Shown here: positions 4,081 through 52,281 of the stretch, one piece after another | Position numbering within the stretch: the stretch's first letter is position 1 | Layout: each line of letters starts with the position of its first letter | Position numbers and translations under genes: made by a program | Assembly: GCA_905178155.1 (NCBI GenBank) | Contig: CAJINV010000011.1 | Location: 3,437,077-3,501,076, forward strand | DNA from: Amoebophrya sp. A120 | Taxonomy: Eukaryota; Protista; Dinoflagellata | Direction: 5' to 3' | DNA: 64,000 nt | Notes under the pieces: model-generated | What the model was told of the DNA's origin: nothing | Seen by the model: only the letters and a program-made list of their open reading frames with translations | Database searches by the model: none

Positions 4081-4859
4081 AGAGAGGTAACTGGTACTTT
4101 ACAGAGAAGAAGCTAACAAGGTTGTCCTGTCTTATGCATTGTTTTTCTGTAGTTTCGAAAGAATTACATCATGTTTAGTCCTATTCTGAATGTATCTTAT
4201 TCTTGGTTTCCCCTTTAGGTTGAGGATTATCGACACAATGTACATATTCATGTTCTCGCAGGATTTTATGCATATGGAGGTACCTCCGACTTTTTTACGC
4301 CGTGTAGACTTTTTTAGCATACATACAAACCATTTTTTCCAATTGACAAAGCAGAAGAAACCGTTTCGGTTTTTTTCAAACTTATCACTTTTTTGGCATC
4401 AGGGAAAATCGCAGTTTATCGGATTGGATTCGAAGTGATTACCGTGTGTGGATCTATTTTTGACGTTGCTAATGACGAAACACAAACATCAACATGTACA
4501 ATAGGCACTGTGTTTTTATCAGAAACAGAAGGGCAGCAAGCCATCGCATACGATCAGCGCACATCGTTACAGGTCGTGTTTCCGTACTAGGAGAGTTCCA
4601 TTATTTGAACTCTCTGTCTTGAAACGGTAAAAGCTCACTACTTGATCAACTAGAACGAACTCTGGCACTTGATGCAAGCCGCCTGGCTTTGTTGTATTTT
4701 TGGGTACGTCGGTAGTTCTGAGTCGCATTTTGATTTTTCAGGTTACAAACGCAAGCCGCACTCTTTCCAGCGTTTTTGATGACATTTCGATTTCGCCTCT
4801 TTATCTTACTTCAAAGTGGATTAGGCATCCTATCGCATTATCGTGAATATTAAAACAAA

Positions 4860-7800
4860 ATGGTTGAAGTTTTGCGAGCCCCCGACGACGATCGGAGCTG
4901 GGATTGCTCGCAGTGTCAGCACACAAACGTCGCTGTGGTAATCCGGATTTCTCGTCCCTTTACACAAAGTTTTTTTGATGATTTAGCTGAACAAGAGGAT
5001 AATTCGAATTCCTATAGTACTCACTTCTTCGCGAAAAATGTGGCGAGGACTTGTATCACAAAAGGAAAAGTGTGAAGATCAAAACCTTTATCAGGTCGAG
5101 TGCATCTGCAAAACCTGGCTCTGCATCAAGTGTGGGAACCGGAACCTAAATTTTTCCGGTCGTCTGGAGTGTAACCGCAAGGCCTGCAAGCAGTGGAAAA
5201 CGACGGAGATAACCGATTTCGAGCTCCTGACTATTCGCGAAGGTCGCGACAGTTTTCTGGCTCAATTTTGCCGAAGCCCGACCTAATGCATGAGATTTCT
5301 GTAGTCATGATCTGCGCCGCGCTAATCAATACCGAATGAGCCTGGTTGCTTTACATGGTGATGAAATTTCAGAAAAAAGTACCGCGAGCTCCGGCAGTTT
5401 CGACTCGCCAGACCTCACATCTCGAAGGAGTTGCTCCCGGTGTGGTTGCTTGAAGTCCTGAAAAATTTTGCCTTCCACGGACTTGAAGAACCCGTTATCG
5501 CGGCGCGGGTCGCGCCAATGTTTTCGGTGGGAGTCTGGCCCGAGCCCACCTGATCAACAGGCTGCTCGACAAAGTCAACAGTGGCTCAAGGCCCATCCTC
5601 GCCCATGGCAATGGGAGACACAACATCTTTCTGGCGTACGACAATACACGCCAGTCCTCGCAGGGTTTAGGGTTAGCGTTCCGTCCCCAAGGTGGTGCAA
5701 CATGAGAACCTCCGGATCTGAGGCGTGCCTCGGCGACCCATCGACCGTTGTGGCCCCTGCTGGGTCCGCGCTATCCTCAATGAAAAAATGGGACTCAAAT
5801 TTAGCTACTCTTGATTTGCTGTAGTGGGACCCGAAAAGTAGAAGATAGCTAGACTATTGCAGTTCTGGAATGTGTCAATGGCTAGCTAGATCAAAACATG
5901 TTTTCTCATCGATCAAAAGCGTATTCTTTTCCAGATGCAGGTAGAAGCCGGCACCCAGACGCCGCGGCCTAGTCGCTCGGCAGTGGTGCGGACGGGAACG
6001 AGGATAAAGTCGCTGCTCTGGGTTGTTCCTGGAAATGCGAGGTGGTGGCCACTGCGGTGACGAACTCGAGGCCGACCCTGGAGACCGGAGGCGGAGTCGA
6101 CGAATGGGCGTCGGAGAATGAAAAAATTTGAAAAATTTCGTCTGCGGACAAAATTCACGTTAGTATGCAAGCAGTGGAAAACGACGGAGATAACCGATTT
6201 CGAGTTTATCAAAAAGTACTTCCTTGACAAAGCAGCTTTGTCGATTGTTTTTGCTGTCACTTGTTCGCAAGTGCTACTTGAGGCTGACGTTCTAAAATGC
6301 ATAGCCAACAGCGTCGCGTATGGTGCATTGGGCGTGTTGTTCTTTTTGATATCTCGGCACAGGAACTCCGATTTGAGAGCCTTTTCCTCGTCACCGTTCG
6401 TTTATCCAAGGGAGAAGCACATCCATACCAGAAAAATCAATCAGATGCAGTCGTGTCTGATCTGATGCATGATGCACTGTGTCTAGCATGACCCTACTCT
6501 CCTGGGAATTCCACAATGACAATACCGATGGAGTTGTCCTTGTGGCTCAGTATTTTGAGAATTTGGATTTCGATTTTTGGCAATGTAAACTCATATATAA
6601 TTCTGGTATGGATGTTCTTTTCTGTAGGATATTTTTCCATCGTTCGGAATTTCGAGCATCGCGAGATGAAATTTCTTATCACCTGCAAACGCGTTTGGAT
6701 TTGGAAATCTTTGATGCTAAATTGTATGTGTGGCTAGTGCGCTTCGAAGTGTAGCCCGAAGTGGCAGTGCAATGCTCTTGCTCGCTCGAGCGTGGAGCAT
6801 ACACATGATACTATACAGCAGAACACTCTAGGAATTATACTGCTCGCGCCGCGAGCAGTAAGAATAGCTTCTGAACATAGTAATCTCGACTGCCCGTGGC
6901 GGGCAGTCGAGATTACTATGTTCAGAAGCACAACAAGACGGCGCATGCTTTTGGCAGGTGATCGCGTTCTGTTTCATCGTTCCTCTCCCAAATAAGTAAC
7001 ATGTTTGCAACGGATAATCTTCCAGAGAAACGATTTTCTCGGACCCAAGCAGCCTTGCTGCGCTCTCGCGGATTTGCGTGGTAATCCGATACTTTATGGG
7101 GTTCTCAAACGTTACATTCTCAACTGTTACTACTCCACAGGCTAGCAACGACTGCCGGTCCAGCCAACCACTTTCACAAGTCCTGTATGACAGTGCACAA
7201 CCCCCCCTCCCCCTCATTTCTCATGCAAAATCCCCGATCCGGCTGCTGCCTTGTAGCACTGTTCGCATGACAAATTCTGGAAGCGAGAACAGCACTACAA
7301 TCCGTGCATAAATTTGTCATGCACAGCATACACGTGTGCTGTTGCTTGTATTGCTGTTGATGCTATACAAATGAGGGGGAGGGGGGGTTGTGCGCTCTCA
7401 TACCCTGGCCCAGCACTTCCGAAGCCCGTCCCGGGTCAGCACTTTTTTCGAACACTCGTCCTGGCCCAGCACTTTCAAAAGCTCGACGTCCTGGCCCAGT
7501 GCCAAAAGCTCGTCCTGGTGTGCTTCGTTCGTTAGTCCAGCCGTGTCAAGAATCTGGGCCGGAGGAGGCGTGACCACGCTGGACTCTCGGCGCGAGGAGC
7601 CTTGAGGACCCGGTTTCTGCGATGAATTCTCGGCTGGAGGACCGCCCGCGCTTTCCCTCCTGCGGTCCGACGAGGACGAGGACGACGCGCAGCTGCGCGG
7701 TTTATTCCGGCAAGCAGTGGAAAACGACGGAGATAACCGATTTCGAGTTTATCAAAAAGTACAAGCAGCATTGTCGGAATCACGGGACCGCTGGTGATAA

Positions 7801-10236
7801 GAAGAACCATCAAAACGGCCGGAGCGGCAGTAACAATAGGCCAGGAATAGATAACAAGCGCCGGGATCGTGCCGCTGCCAGGGATGAACTTCGCGGTCAA
7901 AACCCTCTTCCTCGATCGCGCGCGAGGGACGATGACCGATCGCGCCGTCGCAGCCCCCGTGGGCTCCGGGGAGGTCGAGGAGATCGAAATCAAAGGTCCG
8001 GCGAGCGCGGCCACGCCCGCCACCGCAGTGAAGGGCGTAGCCGTAGACGCGAGGACACTACCGCTCGCGCCGTGCACGATAGGGACAACCGGCGGAAGCC
8101 GGAGAACGGAGAGTGGCGTTGCCCGAAATGCTTAAATTTGAATTTCGAAAAGCGGAAGATTTGCAACGCCTTCAACTGCGGCTACCCAAAAGAACCCTGG
8201 AAGTGCCCGGCGTGCAACGCGCAAAATGCCGCGGGGGAGTTTCTGTGTGCCGCGTGCGGGAAACCGCACCCCAACGCTACAGAGAAGCATCTGAAGTTCA
8301 TGCCCAAAAACCAGCCGAATAATCAGTATCAGGCGGATCGGAGAAGCAACAATGGCGCTGCGGGAGGGTCGTCCCCGTCTTGCTCCGCGGATATGGTTAT
8401 TGACCAAGCTCCCGTGGTATCAAATGCAAAGATGTCCGGGTGTGGAAGCATGCAACTTGTGATGCTACATCTGGATTCCAAAAAAATCTGTATTGCATGA
8501 GCAGCAAGCAGTGGAAAACGACGGAGATAACCGATTTCGAGTTTATCAAAAAGTACAAGCAGCATTGTCGGAATCACGGGACCGCTGGTGGTAAAAACCA
8601 TCAAAACGGCCGGAGCGGCAGTAACAAAAGGGCAGGAATAAATAACAAGCGCCGGGATCGTGACGGTGCCAGGGATGATGAACGTCGGGGTCAAAATCCT
8701 CTCGCTCGATCGCGCGCGAGGGACGATCATGACCGATCGCGCCGTCGCAGCCCGCCCCGCGGGCTCCGGGGAGGTCGGGGAGATCGAAATCACAGGTCCG
8801 GTGAGCGCGGCCACGCCCGCCGCCGCAGTGAAGGGCGGAGAGGACGCGACGAGACCACCCCACGCGCGGTGCACGATAGGAACAATCGGCGGAAGCCAGA
8901 GAATGGGGAGTGGCGTTGCCCGAAATGCTTAAATTTGAACTTCGAAAAGCGGAAGATTTGCAACGCGTTCAATTGCGGCTACCCAAAAGAACCCTGGAAG
9001 TGCCCGGCGTGCAACGCGCAAAATGCCGCGGGGGAGTTTCTGTGTGCAGCCTGCGGGAAACCCCACCCCAACGCTACAGAGAAGCATCTGAAGTTCATGC
9101 CGAAAAACCAGCCGAATAATCAGTATCAGGTGGATCGGAGAAGCAATAATGGCGCTGCAGGAGCGCCGTCCTCGTCTAGCTCCGCGGATCTGGTTGGGGA
9201 GATGATGAATATAAAGCCACTTCAGGTCCCGGGGGAACAAGCGATAATAGGAAACAGCTCCAAGTCCAACCAACAAACCCCTTCGAAAGCGAGTTCCGTT
9301 GTGTCTAGTAAGAAAAACAACAACAAAGCGACTAATCGAGATCGACCGCCCCCACCGCCACCGCGAAGGAGAGTGCAGAGCGAATTTAATATTGACGCGC
9401 AACAGACTACAGGCGCAGCGAGTCGGGAAAGAAGTCCGAGGCGGGCGGATGATGGTGGCGTGGGAGTAGGGGACGGGCCACATGAAGATGACATAAATCG
9501 CGGACAACAAGATGACTCCTTCCCTCCCAGCGAAAACTTGGAACACACCAACGAAAACTACGCTGACAACCTCGACCAGAGTGCTCTTGAGCAAGCGGTA
9601 GAGCCAGAGAACCCTTTTCTTGATCCGCAAGAAATAAAACCCGGTTCATCTGAAGCTGGGCGTCAAAACGATCAGGAGCGCGAAGATGAACCGTCGTTGT
9701 CGCAAATCGACGAGCCCTCTGCGCTGGACCAGGAGATGAAGTCTCGAAGTAGTTCTCGGCAAAGCGACAAGAGCGGCGGCAGGCTAAGCCGCGCGAGGAG
9801 GAGAAAAGAAGACGGCGTGGTTGAAGATAGTGCGTTGGACGATCCAGGGCCGGTGGGGAAAGGTGTAATAGACGAAGTTGTGCCTGAGCCTGTAGCGGTT
9901 GAAGCGGAGGAAAAAAGTCCACCAGCAGCGCACCGCACAGAAACTTCCCAGCCAATAGGGAAAGCGGAAACATGTCAAGCACTAATACCCATGCCCGGAG
10001 GAGGTACCTATCCTGGTTTTTTGCTGAACTGCTTTGTGCGCACTTCAGTACTGTGTTTTTCTTTATCGCATGCTAACTATCGAAGAAGCCTAGTCCGCAT
10101 TGTTCTTCTTAACCACGACTTGGTATCATCGGTAAAAAGGAAAGCACAAAACTCTTCTAGGTGGAGTAGAGCTGGTGACGATGAGGCCCCTCCTCACGGC
10201 CGACGGTGAGCATATCCATGTGAACGGGCACGCCAT
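4860..10236 (+). CDS. RanBP2-type zinc-finger, RS/RD-rich putative RNA-binding protein; interrupted by repeated exon restarts; 3' end uncertain
   Basis: Exon 1 at 4860-4937 and GT-AG intron 4938-5094 give WDCSQCQHTNVAV|VECICKTWLCIKCGNRN...ECNRKACKQWKTTEITDFE. It continues in the copy at 8504 with WRCPKCLNLNFEKRKICNAFNC and WKCPACNAQNAAGEFLCAAC (W-x-C-x2-C-x3-N...C-x2/4-C). A further GT-AG intron lies at about 10003-10160. Confidence 0.7.
6403..6631. mobile_element. TAT...ATA TIR element, distinct family (E), inside a captured antisense exon fragment
   Basis: Imperfect 31-bp TIR: tatccaagggagaagcacatccataccagaa / ttctggtatggatgttcttttctgtaggata. The DR is weak, but removing the element plus 5 bp restores a minus-strand frame. 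Confidence 0.75.
6838..6929. repeat. Two tandem perfect hairpins (11-bp arms and 30-bp arms)
   Basis: tactgctcgcg-c-cgcgagcagta (6838-6860); gcttctgaacatagtaatctcgactgcccg-tgg-cgggcagtcgagattactatgttcagaagc (6867-6929). Confidence 0.95.
7186..7402. mobile_element. TAT...ATA TIR element, distinct family (G)
   Basis: TIR tatgacagtgcacaaccccccctccccctcattt / aaatgagggggagggggggttgtgcgctctcata (2 mismatches); flanks tcctg/ccctg; internal gcatgaca/tgtcatgc motifs. Confidence 0.9.
7403..7520. repeat. Degenerate minisatellite, unit about 27-31 bp (gtcctggcccagcactt...aagctc)
   Basis: About four imperfect units containing cctggcccag(c/t) or cccgggtcagc. Confidence 0.7.
8418..8503. mobile_element. 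Truncated family A introner (one TIR only)
   Basis: tatcaaatgcaaagatgtccgggtgtggaagc..., similar to the left end of 34137; cut off exactly at the exon restart at 8504. Confidence 0.85.
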
Positions 10237-10479
10237 GTATTACAAAGCGCCACTGAGTCCAAAACTGACAGGAAGCACGGGGGTGGGCTCGAAACCGAGA
10301 GCCAGCCGCAAGTGAAGGGATTTCGGTCCTAAATTTTTGAAAATACGCCTGAATTCGTGAAGAAATTCCTTGATACAGGAGGCAAATAGATACTATACTT
10401 GTGATTATAAAAAAAAACAATTACAATACAATTCCGATTTATCGATCTTCGTGCAACGCCAGCTTGTAATCGTTTACAA

Positions 10480-12420
10480 GCTCATCTCACAGAGGGGAGC
10501 CCCGGAAGTCCATCTGAGATGACTTGCGGCCACGCCAAAAGTTTTGCTTTTTTGCGAAACAGGGGGCGTCGACGTGAAGGCGGAAGTGAACTGTGTTCGT
10601 CTTCATTTTTTTTCTGAGTGTTGGGCTTCAGTGTCAGGGACCAAGCAGCCAAAAATCTGCGGAGGGCCAACAAAGTCGGCAGCCTTTGTCGCATTGCGCT
10701 GGGAGGCCCACGGTGCGCGATTGGTACCAGGCCAACGGAAAACAGGGCCACGCAATGCCGTCGGGCATTGTATGCCTTCCGAGGAATCGAGCCGGCCGCT
10801 TGAGGCGTGGAACGAGATCGGCCACCCATATGCGAACGCTCCGGGCGGAGCTCTTCCGTTGGGGCTCCTCGGGTACAAGAAAGAGGGGGAGCCGCGGAAG
10901 GAGAAGGACCGCGGACCCCGCCCGCGTCCGAAGGTGTTTAAGCCGCGCCGGGTATTCGAGTCGAACAGCCCGGGGGGGCGACGTAACGCCGTGAGAGACT
11001 CCGGCCCTGAGTCGGTGGGCTCCGCAGTGCATCCCTAGCGCCCCCCGGCAGGTTCCGGATGCTGCCAGCAGGGCGGCAGACTTCGGGCCGCGTCGTGCAT
11101 TGATGGGGAAAGGGGGGGGGGCCTGCGGCCGCCGGCTTTGCCGCGGCCCCCCTGCATTGGCGGGGTGGCGCCCCTTCATACGGACGCAAGCCAAAGCGCT
11201 TTGTGGACAACTGCGCCCGCGCGACAGCAGGGCCGCGGACTTAGGGAAGACCCTGGTGGAGCGCTGCCGGCACTACTTCGAAGCGACGGCCGTGCGTTGC
11301 AGGTGCGCGCGGGCCGAGGTCCGCCCACTTCACTCAGCAGGTCGCACGACAGGGCGGCGCCGCGCAGCCTTGCGAAGCTGCAAGCGCGCCCCGCTAGAGG
11401 CCGGCGGCGGTGGCGGTGTGCAGATATCACAGCCAGGCCATGTCTTCGGTGATTTGCAGGGCGCGCCATATGTCGCGCATATTCAGCGGGTCGGTCGCGA
11501 TCGCGAAGCGCCGGCCCGATGGCGGCGGAACTTCTTCGGCAGCCAGGCCAGGCGCGCCTTGGGGCCCTTGGGGCCTTACTTAGGGGAGGGCGCCAGCCGA
11601 GCCAGCCCCCCCCCATCTGGGCATATATATTCCCGAGTGCGTAGCCCCGCGGGCGCGCGGGAACTGGTTTGGCGCTGGGGCACTTGGCGGCCCGGAAAAT
11701 AAAGCGCGGGCCGCCGCTTTGGCGCTCGGGCAGCCCGACTCCGGGACGGCAGACAGGGAAGGAGGGCGCGGCAGCGCGTCGGGGGCCGCGAGGTCTGTGG
11801 GCCCGCCGGTCGGCCCATTGGCCGCAGGCCGGCCGCTTCCTTCCATTCTTCGTTCATTCGATGGGCGGGGGGGAGAGGCGGGCGCGGCAAGATGCAAAGC
11901 CGTACCCGGGCCCAAGCCCGGCCGGCGGGCAACATCGGGCGGGCACGCGATAGGGAATGGATCAACTACAGTGCCCACTCCATGGCGCGCCAGCCTCGCA
12001 AGTCGCTTGCTTGCTGCGCTCGGCCGGGCCGCCGGCCTGGCGGGCCGGCCCGGACTCAGTTCCGCGCCCCTCGTCCTCCCGGGCTAGCCGCGCCGGCCTG
12101 TCTTACATGCATTGGCCCGCCCTCCCCTCACATCGGGGGCCCGCCCTGTCTACCCCGCCCTTGGAAACCTATATCGCCCCCGCTTGGGGGGCGGGGGCTT
12201 GGGCCAAGCCCGTGCGCGATTCAGGCTTTTGGTTCTCGCGCTGGGTGGTCCCCCCATGTCGTATGTTGAACAGGCTGGAAGCGCCAGCGCGCGCGCGGTT
12301 GTCTTCGAGCGCGCTGGGCGCCGCGGGAGTCGCAAGCGCGCGCGCGTACCCTTCCGCTGGTGCAATGAGTATAGGTGGTATAGGTGCGCGCAGTGGCGCA
12401 GCTTCGTAAGTGCATCGCAG
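10480..12420. other. GC-rich intergenic block, possibly a decayed mobile element
   Basis: Abrupt rise in GC, G/C runs and only low-complexity Arg/Gly/Pro/Ala ORFs; hairpin agcttgtaa-tcgt-ttacaagct at the left edge. Confidence 0.4.
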
Positions 12421-13022
12421 AACTTGATGTAGACCCCTTGTGCTCTGTGGCTTCTTGCCGTAGCCATACTACCTTTATTAGGTTTAGTCAATCTTATTTT
12501 GTCTTTCTCTTTTGCTCGACCCAATTCGCGTTGGTTTGTTTTGCGGCTGAGCAAGCTATTGGGAGTGAAAAATGAGAAGTGTCGGAGCGCAGCTGTTTCA
12601 ATGTCAAATGGCAGGCTTTTTTTTCGTCTGGACGAGCGCAAATGAGTGTTGTCACGACTATGAGAGTTCATTCAGTCACTCATTGGTCGTGCCGTCGCAA
12701 AATGACCCTGATTTTGATTTGTCAGTTACGTAGCCTAACAGGAGCTGAAAAAATCACGAATCATTCGAGCAAGTCTGTGTAAAAGCCGTGTGATAGCAAA
12801 GTGCGTCAGCAGAAAGTAAGAAAAGGACTCGTGTCGTGAAAGTTTGTTGGCCTCGTGTTATTCTTTGTTTCCGGGACCGTGACAAGGACAGTACCCGAGA
12901 ATCAAGCTCTTTTGCTTTTGCGTGGCTGAGCATTGCTGCGGCCGATCAGCGCTCATTGACTGTGTGCAATCCGATATCAAAACGCGAGAACAAGCCAGGC
13001 GTCCGTGTTCGAAGCCGCCACC

Positions 13023-16000
13023 ATGGCCGAGACCGAGGAAGTGGACGAGTCGCCCGTGGACTCGGCGGAGAACGAACCTCTGTCTGACGATGCGGCGAGC
13101 AACGAGGAGCAAATCTTGAACCTCCGGGCCGCGATGGAGAAAAACGACATCGCGCAGGTCAAGGAGATTTTGAACAACAAGCCCGGCCTGGTGGACGTGG
13201 GGATAGACGACAACAACCGCACGCTGCTGATGAAAGCCATCACGCGGAACAACGCGGACCTGGTCTCCTTCCTCTGCGGGTTGGGGGCCAATGCGGACAC
13301 GAGGTTGGACGTCTTCCGCTGCAACGCGCTGATGTGCGCGATTGACAAGTTCAACGACAACATTTTCAAAACCATCATGTCCGTCATGGACACCTACCAC
13401 CCCTACGACTTCGACCTTGGTATAGAAGTACAGGAGGATTTGTTCGCTTTTCATCGGGGTTTCATCTTGAGCACCGACATTGCAATAGCAGTCGTCTTTT
13501 CATCATCTTCTCGTCATGGCAATGTTCTGGCCTATTTATCTAAACGGAATAAATTTTTGCTCCAGTCAAAATGGAATTAAAATTACGATTACGTCGTGTA
13601 CGCGTGATACGCAACATCACAGGTGGCGAGTGCTCCCATATGGTAAAGCAGGACCCGGGTTACTGCGGGAAACCAGGCGCGGAGCTAAACTTAAACGACT
13701 CGACCAGACTAGCGGTCGAAGTAGGCTTGACACCATTTGGCGTTGAGGACGCACTCGAGTACATAGACAACGCCGCATCACGGATGCAGTCGAAGATGGG
13801 CAGCAGACAGATAACGCCGAGGGTAGTGAATCTGATGTCTTGCGCTAATTGCAATCGTCTCAAGTAGCTTTCTTTTGTCGATGTCAACACATATCACAGC
13901 AAGTACAGCGAAGCAAGGGGCCAAAGTAGGAGATGCTTGTTTTCTAATCGACCACTATTAATCAGGTACCAGCAACGGCACTCACGCCGCGAGACGATGC
14001 TTCCGCAAATGGTGAATTTGGGGCTTTTCAACTCCCAGAGGTCGCGAGCTCAGTCGGCGCAGCGTCGTTTTCAACGGCACAGATACTGTCACAGGTAGTG
14101 GATGCGAAGAAGCCGCTCATAGCCCTGCACGCAATACTACTCGACAAGGACGGTATACGGGATTCTTTTATCTTTTTTTCGTTCCGAAACTTCGACCGCG
14201 AGCTCATTCTCATTGCGACTGATCTATGTGACTTCGTTTTCGAATCCCATTCCCAATTCCCTCACCTGCCAAAACTAATCAGGCACCGAGCTCGACCGAA
14301 TAACCGCGGAGAACAACAACGTCGTGAAGCACTTCGCGCCACACCTTCTCCCCAAGGAGATGGCCGTTGACCTCACCGGTGCGGACAAAAGGCAGGGCCT
14401 CCAGCAGGATAAGAAAAAGATGCGACGGAGCTTTAGCAGCGTCTCCGGGCGGAAAGCGAAGAAGATGCCGAAGAGGTTTCAAGCCGAGGGGATCTACGCA
14501 GTGGACTACGAGGATAGAATCGGAAGGAAGAAACTGCACGACACGTGGCTGGCGAAGCAAGACGGGTTTTCCCCAAGATCTTCGCCCACCGAAGACAGGA
14601 AAAACGGAGGTGGTCTAGACGCCGATGACTCGCAGTCCGTTGTCAGTCGTAGTTGCGCCTCCGCGTCCGCCGCGTCCGCGGCGCCAAAATCGGTGCAGTC
14701 GGCGGCCAGGCTCGAGCGGGACGCGTTTATTCTGGACCCCGAAAGACATAAAGTCGGGCTCTTTCTCGACTTGCACAAAGTCCCGAAGGAGGTCGCGAGC
14801 ATCTGCTTCAAATTGGAAGCACAGGGGATCTACGCGGAGAAGCAGGCGAATTTGAGATTTTTCACAGAGAAACCCGAGTACAGCACAAGGGAGAAGGAAA
14901 GGGAAAAATCGGCGTATATAATTTTGGTGGTTTGATGATGTTTTGGCATGACAAATTTGCAACAAATTACCTATGGTGATTCGACACACGAAAAACTAAC
15001 GGCGCTATTTTGAAACCACCTCACTCAAAATTATACCACCGCAGCTACGAGTCGGACCGCGGTTCTAACGCGAGATCGATGCGGTCCCAAATGTCGTTCG
15101 CCGCTACCACCGCCATCGGGTCGGACACACAACCAAATCCCGAAAACGAAACACTTCTCACCGTCAAGACCCCCTTCGAGGTCGACAACCTTTTTCTCGT
15201 CTCTCTATGCCGCGACTACAGCTCCAATACCTACGTCGTTCCCCACTGGATGGCCCACTTCGACTGGAGGGAAGCGGAAGCGAGCTTTGACGACAACTAC
15301 GAGATTCCAGAAACCAGGCAAGCACCGGTGGAGGAGGAGGAAATTTTCAGTGAAATTGCGAAAAGATCAAACCCAGTCGTTTGTAGCAAGTCGAGCAACG
15401 TGAGGCGCTTTCCGGTGTTAATCAAAATGGTGTTCCAGAACAACGTTACCATGATGATGCAACTCCTCGAATCAAAAGCCAGCTGCGATATCGCCGACGT
15501 GGAGTTCGGCATCACGCCACTCGGTTGGGCCGCGAGAAGAGGGTTCGACTTGATTGTCCGGAAGTTGGTGGAGCAGGAGTGTGACATCAACGCCACGGAT
15601 TTTCTGGGAAAATCACCACTCTACGCCGCGGTGGAGCAGAAGAGGCTAAAAGTGGCACGGTACCTGCTGGAAAACAAGGCGGACGTGAACCACGTAAATC
15701 CGAGAAGCGGGGAAAACCCGTTGTGGGAGTGCCAGTCCGTGGAGATGGCAAAACTGCTCATGTCCCACAAAATCGACCTGAATTGGCGGTCGTCGTCCAA
15801 TAAAGCCAGCGCATTGTTGCAACTCGCGAGCAGGAGGTGTAGAACCAGGAAAGAAGCGGAGGAAATCTTCGACATCATAAAGCTACTGGTATTCTTGATC
15901 ATTCCACTTCGGGTTCGGTTTTCATGCGCAACGACTCGCTACGGCTACTAGTACTAGGTCGTACGAACACTCACGGACATTGTTTTTTCGTCCGTTACGT

Positions 16001-45686: not shown

Positions 45687-47615
45687 ATGAAAAGCAGTTT
45701 GGCCAGACTGTTCTGCGTTTACACCTCGTTTTTCTCCCTTTTAACGCATGCGTTCGACGAACAAGATCCCTGCAGACACCACGACTACCCCGACATGGGT
45801 GTGGAGAACCCGCTCAAGGATGGCCAGTTTGTCCACGCGCAGATTGTCGCGAACAAGACACACAGGTACTCAGTACTAGCATTGGGAGATGGAGGAAGTT
45901 TTTTTTTGAGATTCAGTGCACAGCAGGTGCGAATGATTTTTTGTGTTTGTCTTTTTTTGCGATGTAGTTCATGTTCATGTAGCGGATTTAGATGGCGGGA
46001 TTGAAAAAATAAATTATCCTCAGGTACTCCTTTCAAACGATGAATACCACTTTAATCCACGTCCCCGACCAATTCCGAAAGTTGATCATCAACCTGGAAC
46101 CCTGCAAGGGCATCGTGTACCTGTTCGTGCGAAAAACGCGGCCCTGCTACCCGGATCCCTACAGCTGCATGAAGTTTGGCCCCACGGTGGCCGGCAGTTC
46201 GCAGGAGACCGTGCCCCAGGCGGACGAGTGCGAGTGGACCCACTACGTGTCGGTGATTGATGGCACCCGGGATGGCGCGCCGACCTTCTTCGAATTACCT
46301 TTGACTTCCACCCGGTACTACATCGCAGTCTACGCGAAGGAGACCTCCTCCTACACCTTGACGGTTTTGACCGACATCGGGGCCTGGCCCCGGCCGGGGA
46401 ACGAGGGACAGCTGCAGGCCACGCAGTTGCAGGAGCTGCAGGTGCAAATCGGCTGGGACACGGCGTATTACCGGCCCACAGGGGTGTCAGAAACACTGCA
46501 GTACTACGTCTGGTCCGCCATGCTGCTGGAGCGGGACCAAAGGACAAACGCAGCGGTGTTCTTGACCAAAAGAAAAATCATGAACACGGTATTGGTTTAT
46601 TTTCACTTGTTCAGTAGCATAGAGTCCTCAAAAATGTGGACGTTGTAGAGTTCTTTGCAATAGTCTTGCTAACAAGAGATGCGAGTTGGAGAGTCGACAT
46701 GATGATAGATCGATGATAATAAAGAAAGTACTAGTACATCAAAATCCGAAAATGCTCCATCACACCCTGCTACAGGTCTGCGGGCTGACGAACAACACGG
46801 ACCGGCCCGCCACCCCGACGCCGATTCCCGCCAGCCGGTGCAGCGGCGGCAAGTGCAACGCCACGATTGACGGTGTAGTCACGGGCAAGCGCTACGTGTT
46901 CAATATCAAATGCGAAAATGTCTGTGTCTGGAAGAATGCAAGATTTGTCATGCATATTCCGGATCACGCCAATGGTGTCTGATGCAGGCAAAAGCATCAC
47001 AGGTTTTGAGCACGCCTCACGATGCGTGTCCTGCATGAGAAACTTCCTACTTGCGTACCAAGAAATGGGCAGCCTTTGCCGCTCATGCAACACAAATGTT
47101 TGTGTGTTCCAGAGTTTGCATCACAAGTTCCAAAGCTTCCAGACCCAGACATCTTTGCAATGCATATTCAACGTCGTCGCGGAGTCCAAGCGCGGGTACA
47201 ACATGAGCTACGCGGGCTTGATATGGATGGCAAATATGTCTGGGTCTGGAAGAATACAAACTTGTGATGCGTATTTCAGAACACAGAAAAATCTCTGATG
47301 CATAGGTAGCAAAAGCTGCCCACTTTCTGTCACCAAAGTGGGGGATTTGTCATACGCATTCGGCATTGCGGAAGCTTCTCGAAACCTGTGATGCTGGGGC
47401 TTCCATGCCAGACCTTCTGCGTCATGCAAAAACAGCATGAGTCTTCCAGACCCAGACACTTTTGCATTTGATACTTGATCCTGCGCACCGACTGGTCGGT
47501 GGAGCGGCGAGCTGCGAGTCAGCAGACTTTGATGGCGGTTGGGGGGCTGACCGGGTCGATTTTTGCCATGGTCATCGTCATCTACTGCTGGATGATCTCG
47601 TTGTATGGGAAGTAG
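45687..47615 (+). CDS. Type I membrane protein with a Cys-containing beta-rich ectodomain (possibly FN3/NDNF-like)
   Basis: Signal peptide MKSSLARLFCVYTSFFSLLTHA; two GT-AG introns; junctions RYVFN|VVAES and YAGL|ILRTDW across two elements; C-terminal TM AVGGLTGSIFAMVIVIYCWMISLY. Confidence 0.75.
46904..47166. mobile_element. Introner-type TIR element, family A
   Basis: tatcaaatgcgaaaatgtctgtgtctggaag ... cttccagacccagacatctttgcaatgcata; perfect DR ttcaa. Confidence 0.95.
47222..47473. mobile_element. Introner-type TIR element, family A (inverted relative to 39802-40089)
   Basis: tatggatggcaaatatgtctgggtctggaaga ... tcttccagacccagacacttttgcatttgata; perfect DR cttga. Confidence 0.95.
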
Positions 47616-48496
47616 GAGGAGAGGAGATGAAAGTGGGTATTTTTGAGGAGTGCATTACTACCAGTAGTAGTGCAAAGAAGCATCTTGTTCTGAACTTAGT
47701 TTTGTCGCCAAAAATACTAAACGAAATGCGAAACACCACATCAATTTGCTCAACGGGAAGAAATAATAAATCACATCTGTTTTGTCGAAAATTTAGCCGA
47801 TCACGAGTTCAAATGGTATAATACTATCGCTTTTAGAAGATGATCAACGAAGTAAATCACAGCTTCGCGTTTTATCGTTTTAGTTTAGTCACAAGTTTAG
47901 TACAAAAAGTGCCGAGCGGATGGAGGGCCGCCGAGAGGTTTCGGTTTTGCAGAAGAAGTAGTACCGAAAGTAAATGGGAAGAGGAGGAGCGTCTGCGAGG
48001 TTGCAAAAATTCTCGGGTCCGGACTCTTCGTTCGGCACTTGTCTCGTAAGGAGATGGAAAAATTGCATGAACACTTTGAATTATACGGGGACAAACTCTG
48101 TACAAATTTGTTCTTTGATTCATTGGAAAAAATGGATTTCTACTCATGCAGAAGCGACTGGGTTTCCAAGCCTAGGCAGGCCAACGGTGTTCGCTGGCTC
48201 GCAAAAATGGTTCAAGTTGATGATCTCGAAGATGTCCAGTTGTACACTGAATTGTGGAAGATCTTGAACTGGAGCACTGTCGGTTTCTCATTCTGTTTGA
48301 GCTCGAAGATTCTAGTATTAGTTGAAGCATGACGGAGTTGGAGTTCGCTCAGCGACCTTTTTATCCAGAATGTTGTTTTTGAGGAGATCTTGGACTTGAT
48401 TCCGTAACTACTAGTGCGTCGTGGTCTTCGAAGAAGATTGTCATGGTGAGGTTTCTACTTTTCCTCATTTGGGCTACTTATAATTTTTAAACAGAC

Positions 48497-49691
48497 ATGT
48501 TGATGTCCTCCTCGTCTTCCAGCTCATCTAACGGAAAAATGCCACGCCGACGGCGATGCCGCTTCGCCGTTTCAACAGCGTTGCTCTTCTCAACCCCTGC
48601 TCTGAGCAGCTACGAGTTCGGTCCCCCTATAATAACGCCCGACGGTGCTGAAACCCCCGAGGACAAAAATGCTCTGCCAAAAGAACCCCAGTCCGACGAA
48701 GTGCTGGAAAACACGCCCTTTCCCTGCAGGGGGCGGGACGACTACAGCGGATCGGAAATCAAGGCCTGGATCGACGAGCACTTGGCAGGCATTCCCGAGC
48801 AGCCGAAGAACCAGAGGCGGATGCTGTTGCTGATGGGGGGCTCGGGTGCGGGGAAGAGCACGTTGGTACGGAAGTTGCGGGAGGAATCGGAATTTTTCAA
48901 GTCCAGCTTCTTGTTGCACGGTTTGGACGAATATTTGAAATATCTGCCGGAATACCAACAGAGCCTCGCTACGGGGAAGAAGTACAAAGACGCCGCCGAC
49001 GGGTGTTACAGTGCGGCGATCAGGATAGCGAAACGGGCGGAAGTGGTAGGCAATGTTGATGATTTTCATTTTTACCAATATTGGACTTTGGAGTATGTTT
49101 TGTCTACCGGTTGCCCATGCGCGTTCCTGTCTTGGGTCAACATGCTCAAGTAAAAACACAACGGGAAAAAATTTGAAAAGCAATAGCGTCGATTATCTAT
49201 CAAACTCAAAACAGGAAATTTTGAAGCGAGGAGTAAACCTCGTATATGAGGAGACCGGCAAGGACCTCGACCGGATCCAGACGCGCGTTCTGCCCCCGTA
49301 CGCTGCGGCCGGCTACCAAATTTCCCTCGCGTTCGTCGCCGTCACGGAGGAAGTGGCGCTGCAACGAGCGCACGAGCGGTTTTTGCTCGAGGGCAGACAC
49401 GCGGGGATCGACTACATCCACAAGACGTTTAAGAACCTGCATGGAAACTTCTTCGAATTGCAGGCAGACCCGAGAATGCACACAACCTCGATGTACTGCG
49501 ACAACAGTTGTACCAAGTACAACCGCGACACGCCGCAGAACTGCATGCTCTGCTGGGAAATCAAGCAGCCGGAAAACTTCGACGCGCATTTTCTGGCATT
49601 GCCGGACGCATTGGTAGATGGGGAGGCAAGTTTCGTGGCACGAACGACGCCACTGGATTACATTACTGAGCGGTATAAGCCAGAGCTTTAA
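48497..49691 (+). CDS. Zeta-toxin-like P-loop kinase
   Basis: Walker A MGGSGAGKST, then LDEYLKYLPEY, NLVYEETG and GYQISLAFVAVTEEVALQRAHERFLLEGRH; GT-AG intron 49046-49214. Confidence 0.8.
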
Positions 49692-50019
49692 GAGGTGTTG
49701 AAGCCTGCTGACTGGTCCATATTTTCGGGCGCCTGCTGATTTTTCTTTGACTGACTATGTTGTGGGGAACAAACACAAAGTGCAGAACGTGCTTGCGCGT
49801 GCTTAAGGAGCGCAGGCTGAGCAGGGCAGTTACCTTTCGCCGAAAAGCTTTTTTTGTCACGTCAAAAATAAATTATGGACACACCACTGACTTTGGATAC
49901 AAGGCGATGTTCGATTTTCGTTGCAGTTCTCCTGGCTGCACAGATATCGCGTTTCTGATTTCGCCAACGTGGATGTGTTGGCTTCGGTCTTCATCCTCTT
50001 TTGCCTTCTTGATAATGGA

Positions 50020-51710
50020 GATGATGGGGGCCGCTAGGTCGGTAGCTCGCGCAGCTGGAAGCAGCCGGCCGCGCCGGGGCGAAGAGGTCGCGGGCGTGCT
50101 AGCGCGCAACCTCCTGGCCTACGTGGTGCATGCCCTGGACTTTTACACACCGCAAGCGCCACAGGCGAAGAACGCGCGCGGCAAACGCGGCGGGGGCTTT
50201 GGAGGTGTCTGCCAGCCTGTCGCCGATGCCGGGCCCGACTGCGAGGAAGCTGCCCAGTTTGTGATCGATAGGCGGGCTCGATCTGTGAGACCTGTGGGGA
50301 CGCCGACGGGCACAGAAGGCGCCAGACTGCCGCCCGCGAAAGTTTTTAGGGCGGCCCAGCCCGCAACCTTCTGCCGGTTATTGGGGGCGTCTCAGCGAAT
50401 GCGGCCGCGGCATGCCCGTGGAAATGCAGCAGGGGATGAATGACATAGGCGAGACCCATTCGGTGGCGTTGTGGGCCGCAGCAGCGGCCCTGGCGGGCGC
50501 TCGCATGGAGCGCGGAACGGGCCCGCCGCCCACGAGGGGGCAGACCAAGGAGGTAAGAATGGCCGCCCGGCAGGCGCCGCCCGCGCTTCTCGCCAGCGTG
50601 GTAGCGTAATAGATTGCGCCCTTGGCGAGCAGTGCCAGCCGCAGGCGTGGTTCGGGTGCACAACCGCGCGGAAGCCACCCCGGACAAGGTCCCGCGCCCC
50701 TTGTACGGCGAAAATTTCCTGGCCATGGCGCCGGACAAGAAATTTGCAGCCTGCTTTGCTCCCGAGGGGCATACTCTTCTCCTTTTCACTGTTTCGGACA
50801 GGTAGCATCTATAGGAAGAGCGGCGCCATTCGAGGTTATTATGGGGTGGTGGGGCGTAATAAATTGCGAGCAGCCGCTGGGCCGTTGCCCTGCCGCCGTG
50901 CGTGGCGCGCGTCATATCCGAAGCGGCGCACTTCGCCCGGCCCCCGCTGCATTCAGCAGCCCCTGCGGGCGCGCATTGGGGCAAGCGCCCCGGCGCGGCC
51001 CCCCTGTTGGCTTCCGCGCGCAAGCTGCCGGCGAGTCCGGTTTTGGCCGGGGTCGGGGATGCAGGCCGCCGGGTGGCGCGCGGTCGGACGTACGGCCAGG
51101 CGACGCCCCGCGGGAACTAGTTGGCCGGACTGACGGGAAAGCCAGCGGGGGAGAACGACGCGCGCTCTGTCTCTCGAGAAGCCGCACGGCCGCCCTTCGT
51201 TCAGGTTCGTTGACAGCCTGCCGGCCCCGGTAGGCCTGCCTGGCCCGGCGCGCGGCGCCCATTTGCTTCCGCCACGGCCGCGCCCCGGCACGTGGCGCCT
51301 CGCACGCCGGGCGCCCGCGTGCAGCATGGCCGGCCCCGCTTCTCCGCCTGCGGGCCGGCGTGGTCTTATTTTCTGCGCCGCCTGGGGTGCGAGTGTGTGC
51401 GCCGGGCCTCGCCCGCGGGCGGGCCGGCCACCCAGATGCGCCCTTGCCTGCTTTCGCCGCGCGCGGCGCCGACTTGCGCTTGCTGGATGTGGCCCCTCTT
51501 CCTGGTTTGTGGCCCTTCGCGCCCGCCACGCCGGCGAAGTTGCATGTGTGGTCGGCTCTTGGTTGCGGTGTGGGTTTGGCCCCGGCCCGCATTTGTTGTC
51601 GCGGCGCCGGGCTACATTATTTTCGGCCGCGGCCGGTTCCCGCTTGCCTTCATTGCTTGGCCCCACTCGAAGCCAGCCACGCCCGATCACGTACCAGCGT
51701 GCGCGCTACT
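50020..51710. other. GC-rich intergenic block, possibly a decayed mobile element
   Basis: High GC and overlapping low-complexity ORFs in all frames. Confidence 0.4.
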
Positions 51711-52281
51711 GAAGATCTGCTCCAGAAAGAGATGAATGCAGCAGGTCTCTCGGCATCTTTCAGCCGGAGGAACTCTAACTACCTACGACCCTCAATCCGG
51801 TTCGGCGCAATGCCTGGATCATTTATCAGCCCGTACTGTTGTGCGGCTTGTGTTCTGGTTTTCACCCTCATCTTTGTCAGGCAGTTGTTGGTCGTCTGTT
51901 CTATCTTTATCTTGTATGTAATCTCTTTGGCATTTCATGGCAGATCGCTCCCAATTGAGTAGCAGTCCTCGCGCAGGTTTGTATTGTGCTCGCACCTATG
52001 TATCAATTATACGCGACGTGATGGGGCAACTAACGAAAGGGCTGCCTCGTGCCCCTGGGCTCCCTCAACTCCCGTTTGTAAAACAACAGCCGTGCTGGTG
52101 GAGCAGAAGCACCGTCACATTGCAAAACAATGGGACTCACCGCAGTGCGGCAGATGCTCTTGCAGGTCCGGGATCCTTTCATACCACATACATAATACAA
52201 CAAACCATCACTCGGCTGATGTCCAGCTCGTCTTGTTCCTCCACAAATCTTCCCAACTCACAACCGTATTGCCCGCTGCCT

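Follow-up and report, generated by a model that had tools for sequence, protein, structure and literature searches.

Insertions copied from other DNA are described for staggered breaks, both in SD-MMEJ (end joining that depends on synthesis and is mediated by microhomology) by polymerase theta and at paired nicks with 3′ overhangs (PMC7407515, PMC8355091), and paired nicks of this kind are reported to give large templated insertions (PMC7407515). The R2 and R9 long interspersed nuclear elements (LINEs) duplicate their targets as well: R2 is reported to cleave the bottom strand at a fixed position and the top strand at variable ones (PMC5035012), and target duplications of 126 bp for R9 and of a median 900 bp for Dualen are given in PMC9977147. 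Amoebophrya, a parasite of the sea, is itself known for introners, including TAT-ended ones described for strain A120 with direct repeats of 3-5 nt (PMC7789003) and introners reported to derive from elements without long terminal repeats (non-LTR) in the same strain (PMC12130899). Here we describe a locus in a 64,000-nucleotide stretch of the Amoebophrya sp. A120 genome (contig CAJINV010000011.1; "the window" below) where one exon of a gene with four RanBP2-type zinc fingers has four restarts at a single shared base, separated from one another by unrelated DNA. The array is genuine. Its ingredients (staggered cuts, long duplications and templated insertions) are known; a literature search, with most subscription papers and supplements outside its scope, listed no naturally occurring series of these events that shares a single position in a conserved single-copy exon.

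Like templated insertions, the locus combines a duplicated target (38, 53 and 87 bp exactly duplicated around the inserts), inserts apparently copied from other DNA, what may be a short junction overlap, and a fold-back hairpin. Unlike them, it would hold at least three natural events at one base, with kilobase mosaics and with a diverged working homolog as one template. It shares with the R2, R9 and Dualen LINEs one fixed and one variable duplication end, tens to hundreds of bp apart, which is the geometry of a fixed first and a variable second nick. In contrast to these elements it shows no element, tail or common 3′ end and, among 82 open frames of at least 35 codons, no match to reverse transcriptase (RT) or endonuclease, its target is a single-copy protein exon, and its cargo resembles genomic DNA. 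The introners belong to the same organism group and TAT...ATA introners lie inside the spacers; the spacers, unlike introners, lack terminal inverted repeats, carry neither TAT...ATA ends nor a 3-5 nt direct repeat at their borders, are bounded by repeats of 38-87 bp and, in the case of spacer 1, are present in a run of RNA type (X3). Arrays of clustered regularly interspaced short palindromic repeats (CRISPR) and integrons have a constant repeat, spacers of similar length and a dedicated integrase nearby. Our locus resembles CRISPR arrays in its repeat-spacer layout, in a site that is rebuilt after capture and in possible growth from one end, and differs from them in repeats and spacers of widely varying length (38-689 and 105-1490 bp), in a repeat that is host exon and in showing no sign of guide use; no integrase-type Pfam match was found in 94 of the 99 window open reading frames (ORFs) of at least 150 amino acids (aa), a search that spliced genes may escape. 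Helitrons have TC...CTRR ends, a sub-terminal hairpin and no target duplication. A Helitron was rejected on all three counts, with differing ends, internal hairpins and duplications present.

The host gene lies on the forward strand. Exon 1 (4860-4937, with its ATG at 4860) aligns to the orthologs of Amoebophrya A25 and AT5, and exon 2 (5095-5185) leads up to the recurrent break point at 5185/5186, within the codon for the final Cys of finger 2. The second finger pair is encoded by the full resident exon, which is copy 4 of the repeat (8504-10003), and the last exon (10161-10315) ends in a C-terminal motif in common with the orthologs. Both canonical introns are spliced with GT..AG joints in X3; they occupy 4938-5094 and 10004-10160 and measure 157 nt each. 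Joining exon 1, exon 2 as far as 5185, copy 4 and the final exon gives a protein of 607 aa, which aligns in both finger pairs to P0067 of AT5 and in the second finger pair and the C-terminal motif to P0056 of A25; the first pair of P0056 also matches exons 1-2. The two orthologs are about 45-52% identical to the window gene in the fingers, and each carries the repeat-matching segment once and the second finger pair once. Because the segment is single in both, the repeat is, by this comparison, native host exon sequence, and the ancestral gene was evidently uninterrupted. The top three HMMER matches all lie on one contig and agree with the window, protein searches with copy 4 gave no match at E 0.001, and neither metagenome scans nor the protein search found a close strain. 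A single viral match was dismissed as a chance 17-18-mer.

We found that the copies of the repeat begin at 5186, 6167, 7710 and 8504, and a preliminary description of this DNA was thus right about four restarts with a base-exact left end. Pairwise comparison of the copies gives exact rightward identity of 38, 53 and 87 bp, and leftward of the common start the identity is 0 bp in five of the six pairs and 1 bp in the other. Copy 1 is the native exon segment of 38 bp (5186-5223), the 53 bp of copy 2 (6167-6219) recur unchanged in copies 3 and 4, and copy 3 (7710-8398) has 689 bp. The right ends at 38 and 53 bp in that description are borne out, whereas its copy of about 690 bp is identical for only the first 87 bp and then 91% identical to 8398. 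With no differences in 91 positions, the short repeats look less than 3% old. The first 16 bases of the repeat have four exact matches and, with up to three mismatches, seven matches against 0.87 expected, and every exact direct repeat of at least 28 bp within the 64 kb belongs to this family. The duplications become shorter leftwards, which matches growth at the left end, weakly, as chance would give it 1 time in 6. Around the break, 5177-5187 is one letter short of a 12-bp palindrome and a second GCAAG lies 9 bp before the repeat start, a possible recognition site. We also observed TGAC within the first 10 bases of all three spacers (5224-5233, 6220-6229 and 8399-8408); the chance of a common 4-mer in three random 10-mers is 0.006, and TGAC was noticed post hoc.

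Read support was judged on contigs of 31-letter words, with 31 letters on either side of a junction as the rule. Of 11 runs, 8 were compared with the window. X1 and X2 are DNA-like; X3-X6, which are not registered as RNA, are taken as RNA from the two GT..AG joints in X3 and from an introner depth far lower in X4-X6 than in X2. Both DNA-like runs contain contigs of 5194-5815, 5793-6195 and 6190(6188)-7121 with no other letters, at an X1 depth of 40-49 against 39.9 and 42.1 in the flanks, and X2 adds a contig of 8275-8428. These contigs cross 5223/5224, 6166/6167, 6219/6220 and 8398/8399 at flank-like depth, and RNA-like contigs from two other samples cross 6166/6167 (X3) and 8503/8504 (X4 and X5). 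Short-read contigs thereby reach across five of the six junctions, four of them with just 26-30 letters on one side. The sixth, 7709/7710, has no contig in the tables; by a rough calculation its depth sum of 13,444 compares with 11,904-14,208 predicted with the junction and 7,784-9,264 without it. No piece spans the whole array, whose order and copy number are therefore not fixed by contigs, and a copy number of four, worked out by hand from depth, fits X1, with no consistent value for X2. We did not use an X3 contig (8050-8304) whose first letters are those of copy 3 and whose last are those of copy 4, as it may have been stitched via a 74-bp identical stretch. Chance and pure amplification chimera were rejected as main explanations, because junctions lie on contigs about as deep as the flanks in two runs and two of them are seen again in other samples.

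Copy 3 lies on its own contig at single-copy depth and is 91% identical to copy 4 over 7710-8398. Across 227 codons the two differ by 25 synonymous and 22 replacement changes (synonymous divergence, dS, 0.184; nonsynonymous divergence, dN, 0.043; Fisher p 2e-6), across the 70 finger codons by 10 synonymous and no replacement changes, and all five indels are 3 bp. Since dS far exceeds dN, the fingers hold no replacements and every indel is 3 bp, copy 3 evidently diverged as part of a working gene. Block 3 (8399-8503) consists of 19 bp and the first 86 bp of an introner with nine other family members in the window. Its first 103 bp (8399-8501) recur without a difference (divergence below about 3%) in a second context, behind another upstream sequence that is absent from the window, in DNA-like X2 and in RNA-like X4 and X5. 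The homology of copies 3 and 4 stops at 8398 and the stretch in common with the second context starts at 8399. At 8504-8507 the continuation of the introner family and the start of the repeat overlap by four nucleotides, GCAA, and a 1-nt overlap is found at 6166. Because the junction to block 3, with 0 differences in 103 bp, is far younger than a dS of 0.18, copy 3 is likely to have arrived already diverged rather than to have aged as a duplicate, with all but its first 87 bp presumably taken from a diverged functional homolog. In our estimate its source is rather more probably an allele of another lineage than a former paralog, the latter being a sizeable possibility. The preliminary description had block 3 approximately in place (about 8400-8503) and was silent on the divergence of copy 3 under coding constraint and on the other upstream neighbour of block 3.

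Spacer 1 (5224-6166) is a 943-bp mosaic that two contigs cover in both X1 and X2 at a depth like that of the flanks, with no identical second copy except a short repeat near 5790-5815. Spacer 2 (6220-7709) is a 1490-bp mosaic, the first 900 bp of which lie on one unbranched contig and the first 61 codons of which are open and in frame with the repeat. Translated and sensitive DNA comparisons of the two spacers with each other and with the rest of the window gave no match save an introner remnant. Spacer 1 holds a telomere-like 11-mer on the forward strand (5662-5672; about 1.5 units of TTTAGGG, the telomere motif named in PMC7789003), its sole occurrence in the window against 0.03 expected. 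Spacer 2 holds a TAT...ATA inverted-repeat element with flanking 5-mers that differ at two places (6403-6631), two adjacent hairpins with perfect arms of 10 and 30 bp (6838-6929), a 36-bp piece of a very high-copy repeat recognized by depth and loose contig ends (7095-7130), and an intact TAT...ATA introner with 35-bp arms and a 5-bp duplication with one mismatch (7186-7402). Imperfect short tandem repeats directly follow this introner (7404-7510), and a related unit precedes it. The 30-bp hairpin spans 6867-6929, the fold of 6825-6945 has a z of -13.4, and the pair likely arose by fold-back synthesis. Rfam gave five matches, none reaching the gathering score. The hairpins (6838-6935) are joined by an ANANNA hinge and followed by ACA, as in the layout of an H/ACA RNA, and score 38.9 bits with SCARNA20, below the cut-off of 44; the perfect stems argue for fold-back DNA over H/ACA RNA.

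No poly(A), simple-repeat tail or common 3′ end occurs across the three spacers, whose 3′ ends are unrelated. Among 82 ORFs of at least 35 aa, no spacer frame reaches a Pfam cut-off, and none of the 82 matches an RT or endonuclease domain, though divergent or trans-acting enzymes would escape such a search; the 61-codon frame found no relative in a protein search at E 0.01 or in Atlas. The mutually unrelated spacers 1 and 2, the perfect hairpins and the telomere-like piece listed in the preliminary description are upheld by these results, and the fragments of other genes that it saw in the spacers are not demonstrated. Because it is tailless and includes two introners, one intact and still flanked by its 5-bp duplication and the other with a worn duplication, as well as a perfect hairpin and a telomere-like piece, the cargo looks like genomic DNA. 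Over spacer 1, over the initial 900 bp of spacer 2 and over copy 3, contig depth is that of single-copy DNA, and these contigs are unbranched across the repeat-spacer borders. When stretches of 900 bp were simulated, 2000 of 2000 had a 31-mer in common with a donor within 5%, and at 18% divergence 72% had none. Since the repeats look less than 3% old, near-identical donors would share 31-mers and the contigs are unbranched, the donors of spacers 1 and 2 are likely either not in this DNA or diverged to a degree similar to copy 3.

The RNA-like runs show how the interrupted gene may be expressed. Two X3 contigs (5331-5493 and 5467-6195) contain spacer 1, and the X3 contig from spacer 1 into repeat 2 is unbranched at a depth of 5.17 against 5.2 for the spliced contig of exons 1-2. 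Reading through into spacer 1 meets a stop after 20 codons and gives a product of 89 residues. Spacer 1 ends three bases past a plausible 3′ splice site (TAG, 6161-6163); a join from the GT at 5243 would keep the frame, and the X3 contig is unbranched there. At the other end of the array, X4 and X5 contain a contig that comes from outside sequence unbranched through 8399-8501 (depth 29 and 25.3), a second that leads from 8478 into the repeat (29.6 and 25), and a third (20.8 and 15.4) that passes from a different outside sequence into the repeat at +6/+8, where the CAG at 8509-8511 has its AG; this CAG is the likely splice acceptor in copy 4 for an outside exon. The 30 letters of outside sequence in the third contig are, by eye, open in frame with the gene, and neither outside sequence is found in the window. 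Since two sequences that the window does not contain lead into copy 4 on RNA-like contigs, the assembly has probably collapsed or omitted a further unit that lies before copy 4 and has block 3 at its end; this unit probably drives expression of the gene's 3′ half, in part through splicing into 8512. Cover gaps prove nothing alone: X3 has no cover over 6336-6947 and 8580-9599, and X4-X6 have no cover over most of 5224-8398 (98% likeness). The word shares of X4-X6 (0.29-0.31) exceed those for the matched pieces plus 4700-5130 (0.095) and fit those for copy 4 plus the last exon (0.30-0.34), a weak hint if the gaps are real. The raw RNA run X9 was uninformative, with two partial reads, both in repeats.

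The explanation we favor, at roughly even chances, is a recurrent site-specific cut at 5185/5186 that was mended by DNA synthesis on several templates, among them a homologous genome that had diverged. Synthesis from the left end would copy 38, 53 or 87 bp of the target, or else 3′ overhangs of that length would be left by a staggered cut, and synthesis would then switch to other DNA. Joining of the product to the untrimmed right end would rebuild the site at the left, where it could be cut again, and new spacers would enter at the left. For copy 3, the template would be a working diverged version of this gene, followed by a jump to block 3. The order of events might be, early on, a capture at the site that ended in block 3; later, a break from which synthesis ran for 689 bp along the diverged homolog, with a switch to block 3 and re-annealing at the repeat; and finally the 53-bp and 38-bp events at the left. 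This inferred order accounts for all contigs without coincidence. The likeliest candidate for the cutter is a sequence-specific endonuclease of LINE type. The native promoter would likely yield a truncated product, with the 3′ half probably re-expressed from captured DNA in the unit missing from the assembly. A repeated site-specific break with templated capture had been proposed in the preliminary description; the fixed left end, the GCAA overlap, the block 3 twin and the fold-back hairpin fit this idea, and the geometry, known from LINEs, is not unprecedented as had been supposed.

Several observations weigh against this explanation. No cutter for the break site was found in the window, and gene flow between Amoebophrya ribotypes is reported to be low, if there is any (PMC7018713). 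The right ends of all three duplications fall on codon borders (a common phase has a chance of 1 in 9), which blind repair does not predict and which hints at selection for splicing. On synonymous sites, the identity of the first 87 bp of copies 3 and 4 is weakly unexpected (p 0.047). The twin of block 3 is present in the same DNA sample, so that the templates would have been mixed. No donor for spacers 1-2 or copy 3 was found in the window or in the run contigs, and the argument from missing donors is weakened by bubble popping in contig building, visible at 9048-9063. Both DNA-like runs come from one sample, possibly the source of the assembly itself. Finally, only 6219/6220 in X2 has the full 31 letters on both sides, the other crossed junctions having 26-30, near the maximum that branching allows.

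The geometry could also be produced by a site-specific LINE protein that nicks the bottom strand at 5185/5186, primes reverse transcription of passenger RNAs at the target and nicks the top strand variably, with the repeats as long target duplications and the spacers as RNA copies. We consider this unlikely, even with the R2-like cleavage, the duplication lengths of Dualen and R9, the non-LTR-derived introners of A120 and a 4-nt overlap at 8504 that could be a priming site in its favor: the spacers lack a tail and a common 3′ end, no RT or endonuclease domain is found among the 82 ORFs, the introners in the cargo are kept unspliced, young RNA copies should leave identical donors of which the contigs of spacers 1-2 show none, and a 689-bp duplication cannot arrive at a dS of 0.18. 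Because the cargo is DNA-like and tailless and includes a diverged homolog in register, repair synthesis is preferred to reverse transcription. It is quite unlikely, in our view, that copy 3 is instead an old duplication or tandem paralog under selection, with spacers spliced out singly, repeats kept as in-frame exons and younger inserts stacked. Purifying selection on copy 3 agrees with this, as do repeat lengths of 38, 53 and 689 that are all 2 mod 3, such that acceptors at repeat +5 or +8 keep the frame, an in-frame join of the GT at 8417 to the AG at 8511, and the outside sequence that joins at repeat +6/+8 in X4 and X5. Spacer 1, however, runs into repeat 2 on the unbranched X3 contig at the depth of spliced exons, the contig through 8399-8501 in X4 and X5 shows no branch where the introner begins, block 3 matches its twin in every letter though it would be old and mostly non-coding, and the orthologs have one module.

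A misjoin at the 105-bp block 3 would leave all pieces genuine while making copies 3 and 4 separate paralogous loci or haplotypes, with three restarts at one place. Block 3 does have two upstream neighbours in DNA-like X2, in X4 and X5 the depth of the outside-neighbour contig (29 and 25.3) is in balance with that of the contig leading out of block 3 to the repeat (29.6 and 25), and the region lacks a spanning piece. We still hold such a misjoin to be very unlikely: a tandem unit collapsed at block 3 and the repeat yields these contigs too and accounts for the end of homology exactly at 8398; the flank, spacers, copies 3 and 4 and downstream DNA all have a depth of about 40-49 in X1; and three restarts at one base would stay regardless. 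The whole 3.3 kb might, lastly, be removed from RNA as a single intron bounded by direct repeats, restoring the 607-residue protein, as the preliminary description had suggested. Deleting 5186-8503 does give a 607-aa ORF that matches both orthologs, many non-canonical introns are reported as spliced in Amoebophrya (PMC7789003), and contigs of 31-letter words cannot reveal a join through a 38-bp repeat. Against it, non-canonical ends would be needed at every register, as the repeat holds no AG|GT, AG|GC or AG|GA register for an exact canonical cut; the described direct repeats of introns are far shorter; and both spacer 1 and copy 3 occur in contigs of the RNA-like runs. The claim that deletion from any repeat to any later one rebuilds the ORF is wrong, since one of the six deletions does so (repeat 1 to repeat 4). 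Among the contig joints, which cannot show a join through the repeat, none removes a spacer. The giant intron is thus unsupported, and we rate it as highly improbable.

Elsewhere in the window, two introners of one family lie side by side, 55 bp apart, and form a 600-bp imperfect palindrome (46904-47473). Two ORFs at 48491-49688 match Pfam Zeta_toxin above the cut-off (29.2 and 40.3 bits) and are probably exons of one P-loop kinase-like gene. The GC-rich stretches at 10300-12400 and 50000-52000 (62-66%) contain overlapping open frames with no Pfam match.

As a broader proposal, and one that we advance tentatively and consider rather doubtful, recurrent base-exact breaks in Amoebophrya may be patched, at a stage when a nucleus is shared, with DNA of a diverged lineage of the same or a sister species, giving polarized repeat-spacer arrays that archive foreign alleles, with a captured promoter and first exon re-expressing the tail of the broken gene. 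The 67 individuals reported as sequenced in PMC7018713 make a comparison of strains cheap. Should another lineage be the source of copy 3 and the spacers, such arrays would be direct and testable traces of otherwise unseen genetic exchange in this group of parasites. They would also point to a site-specific cutter and to a route to new genes through the capture of promoters and exons.

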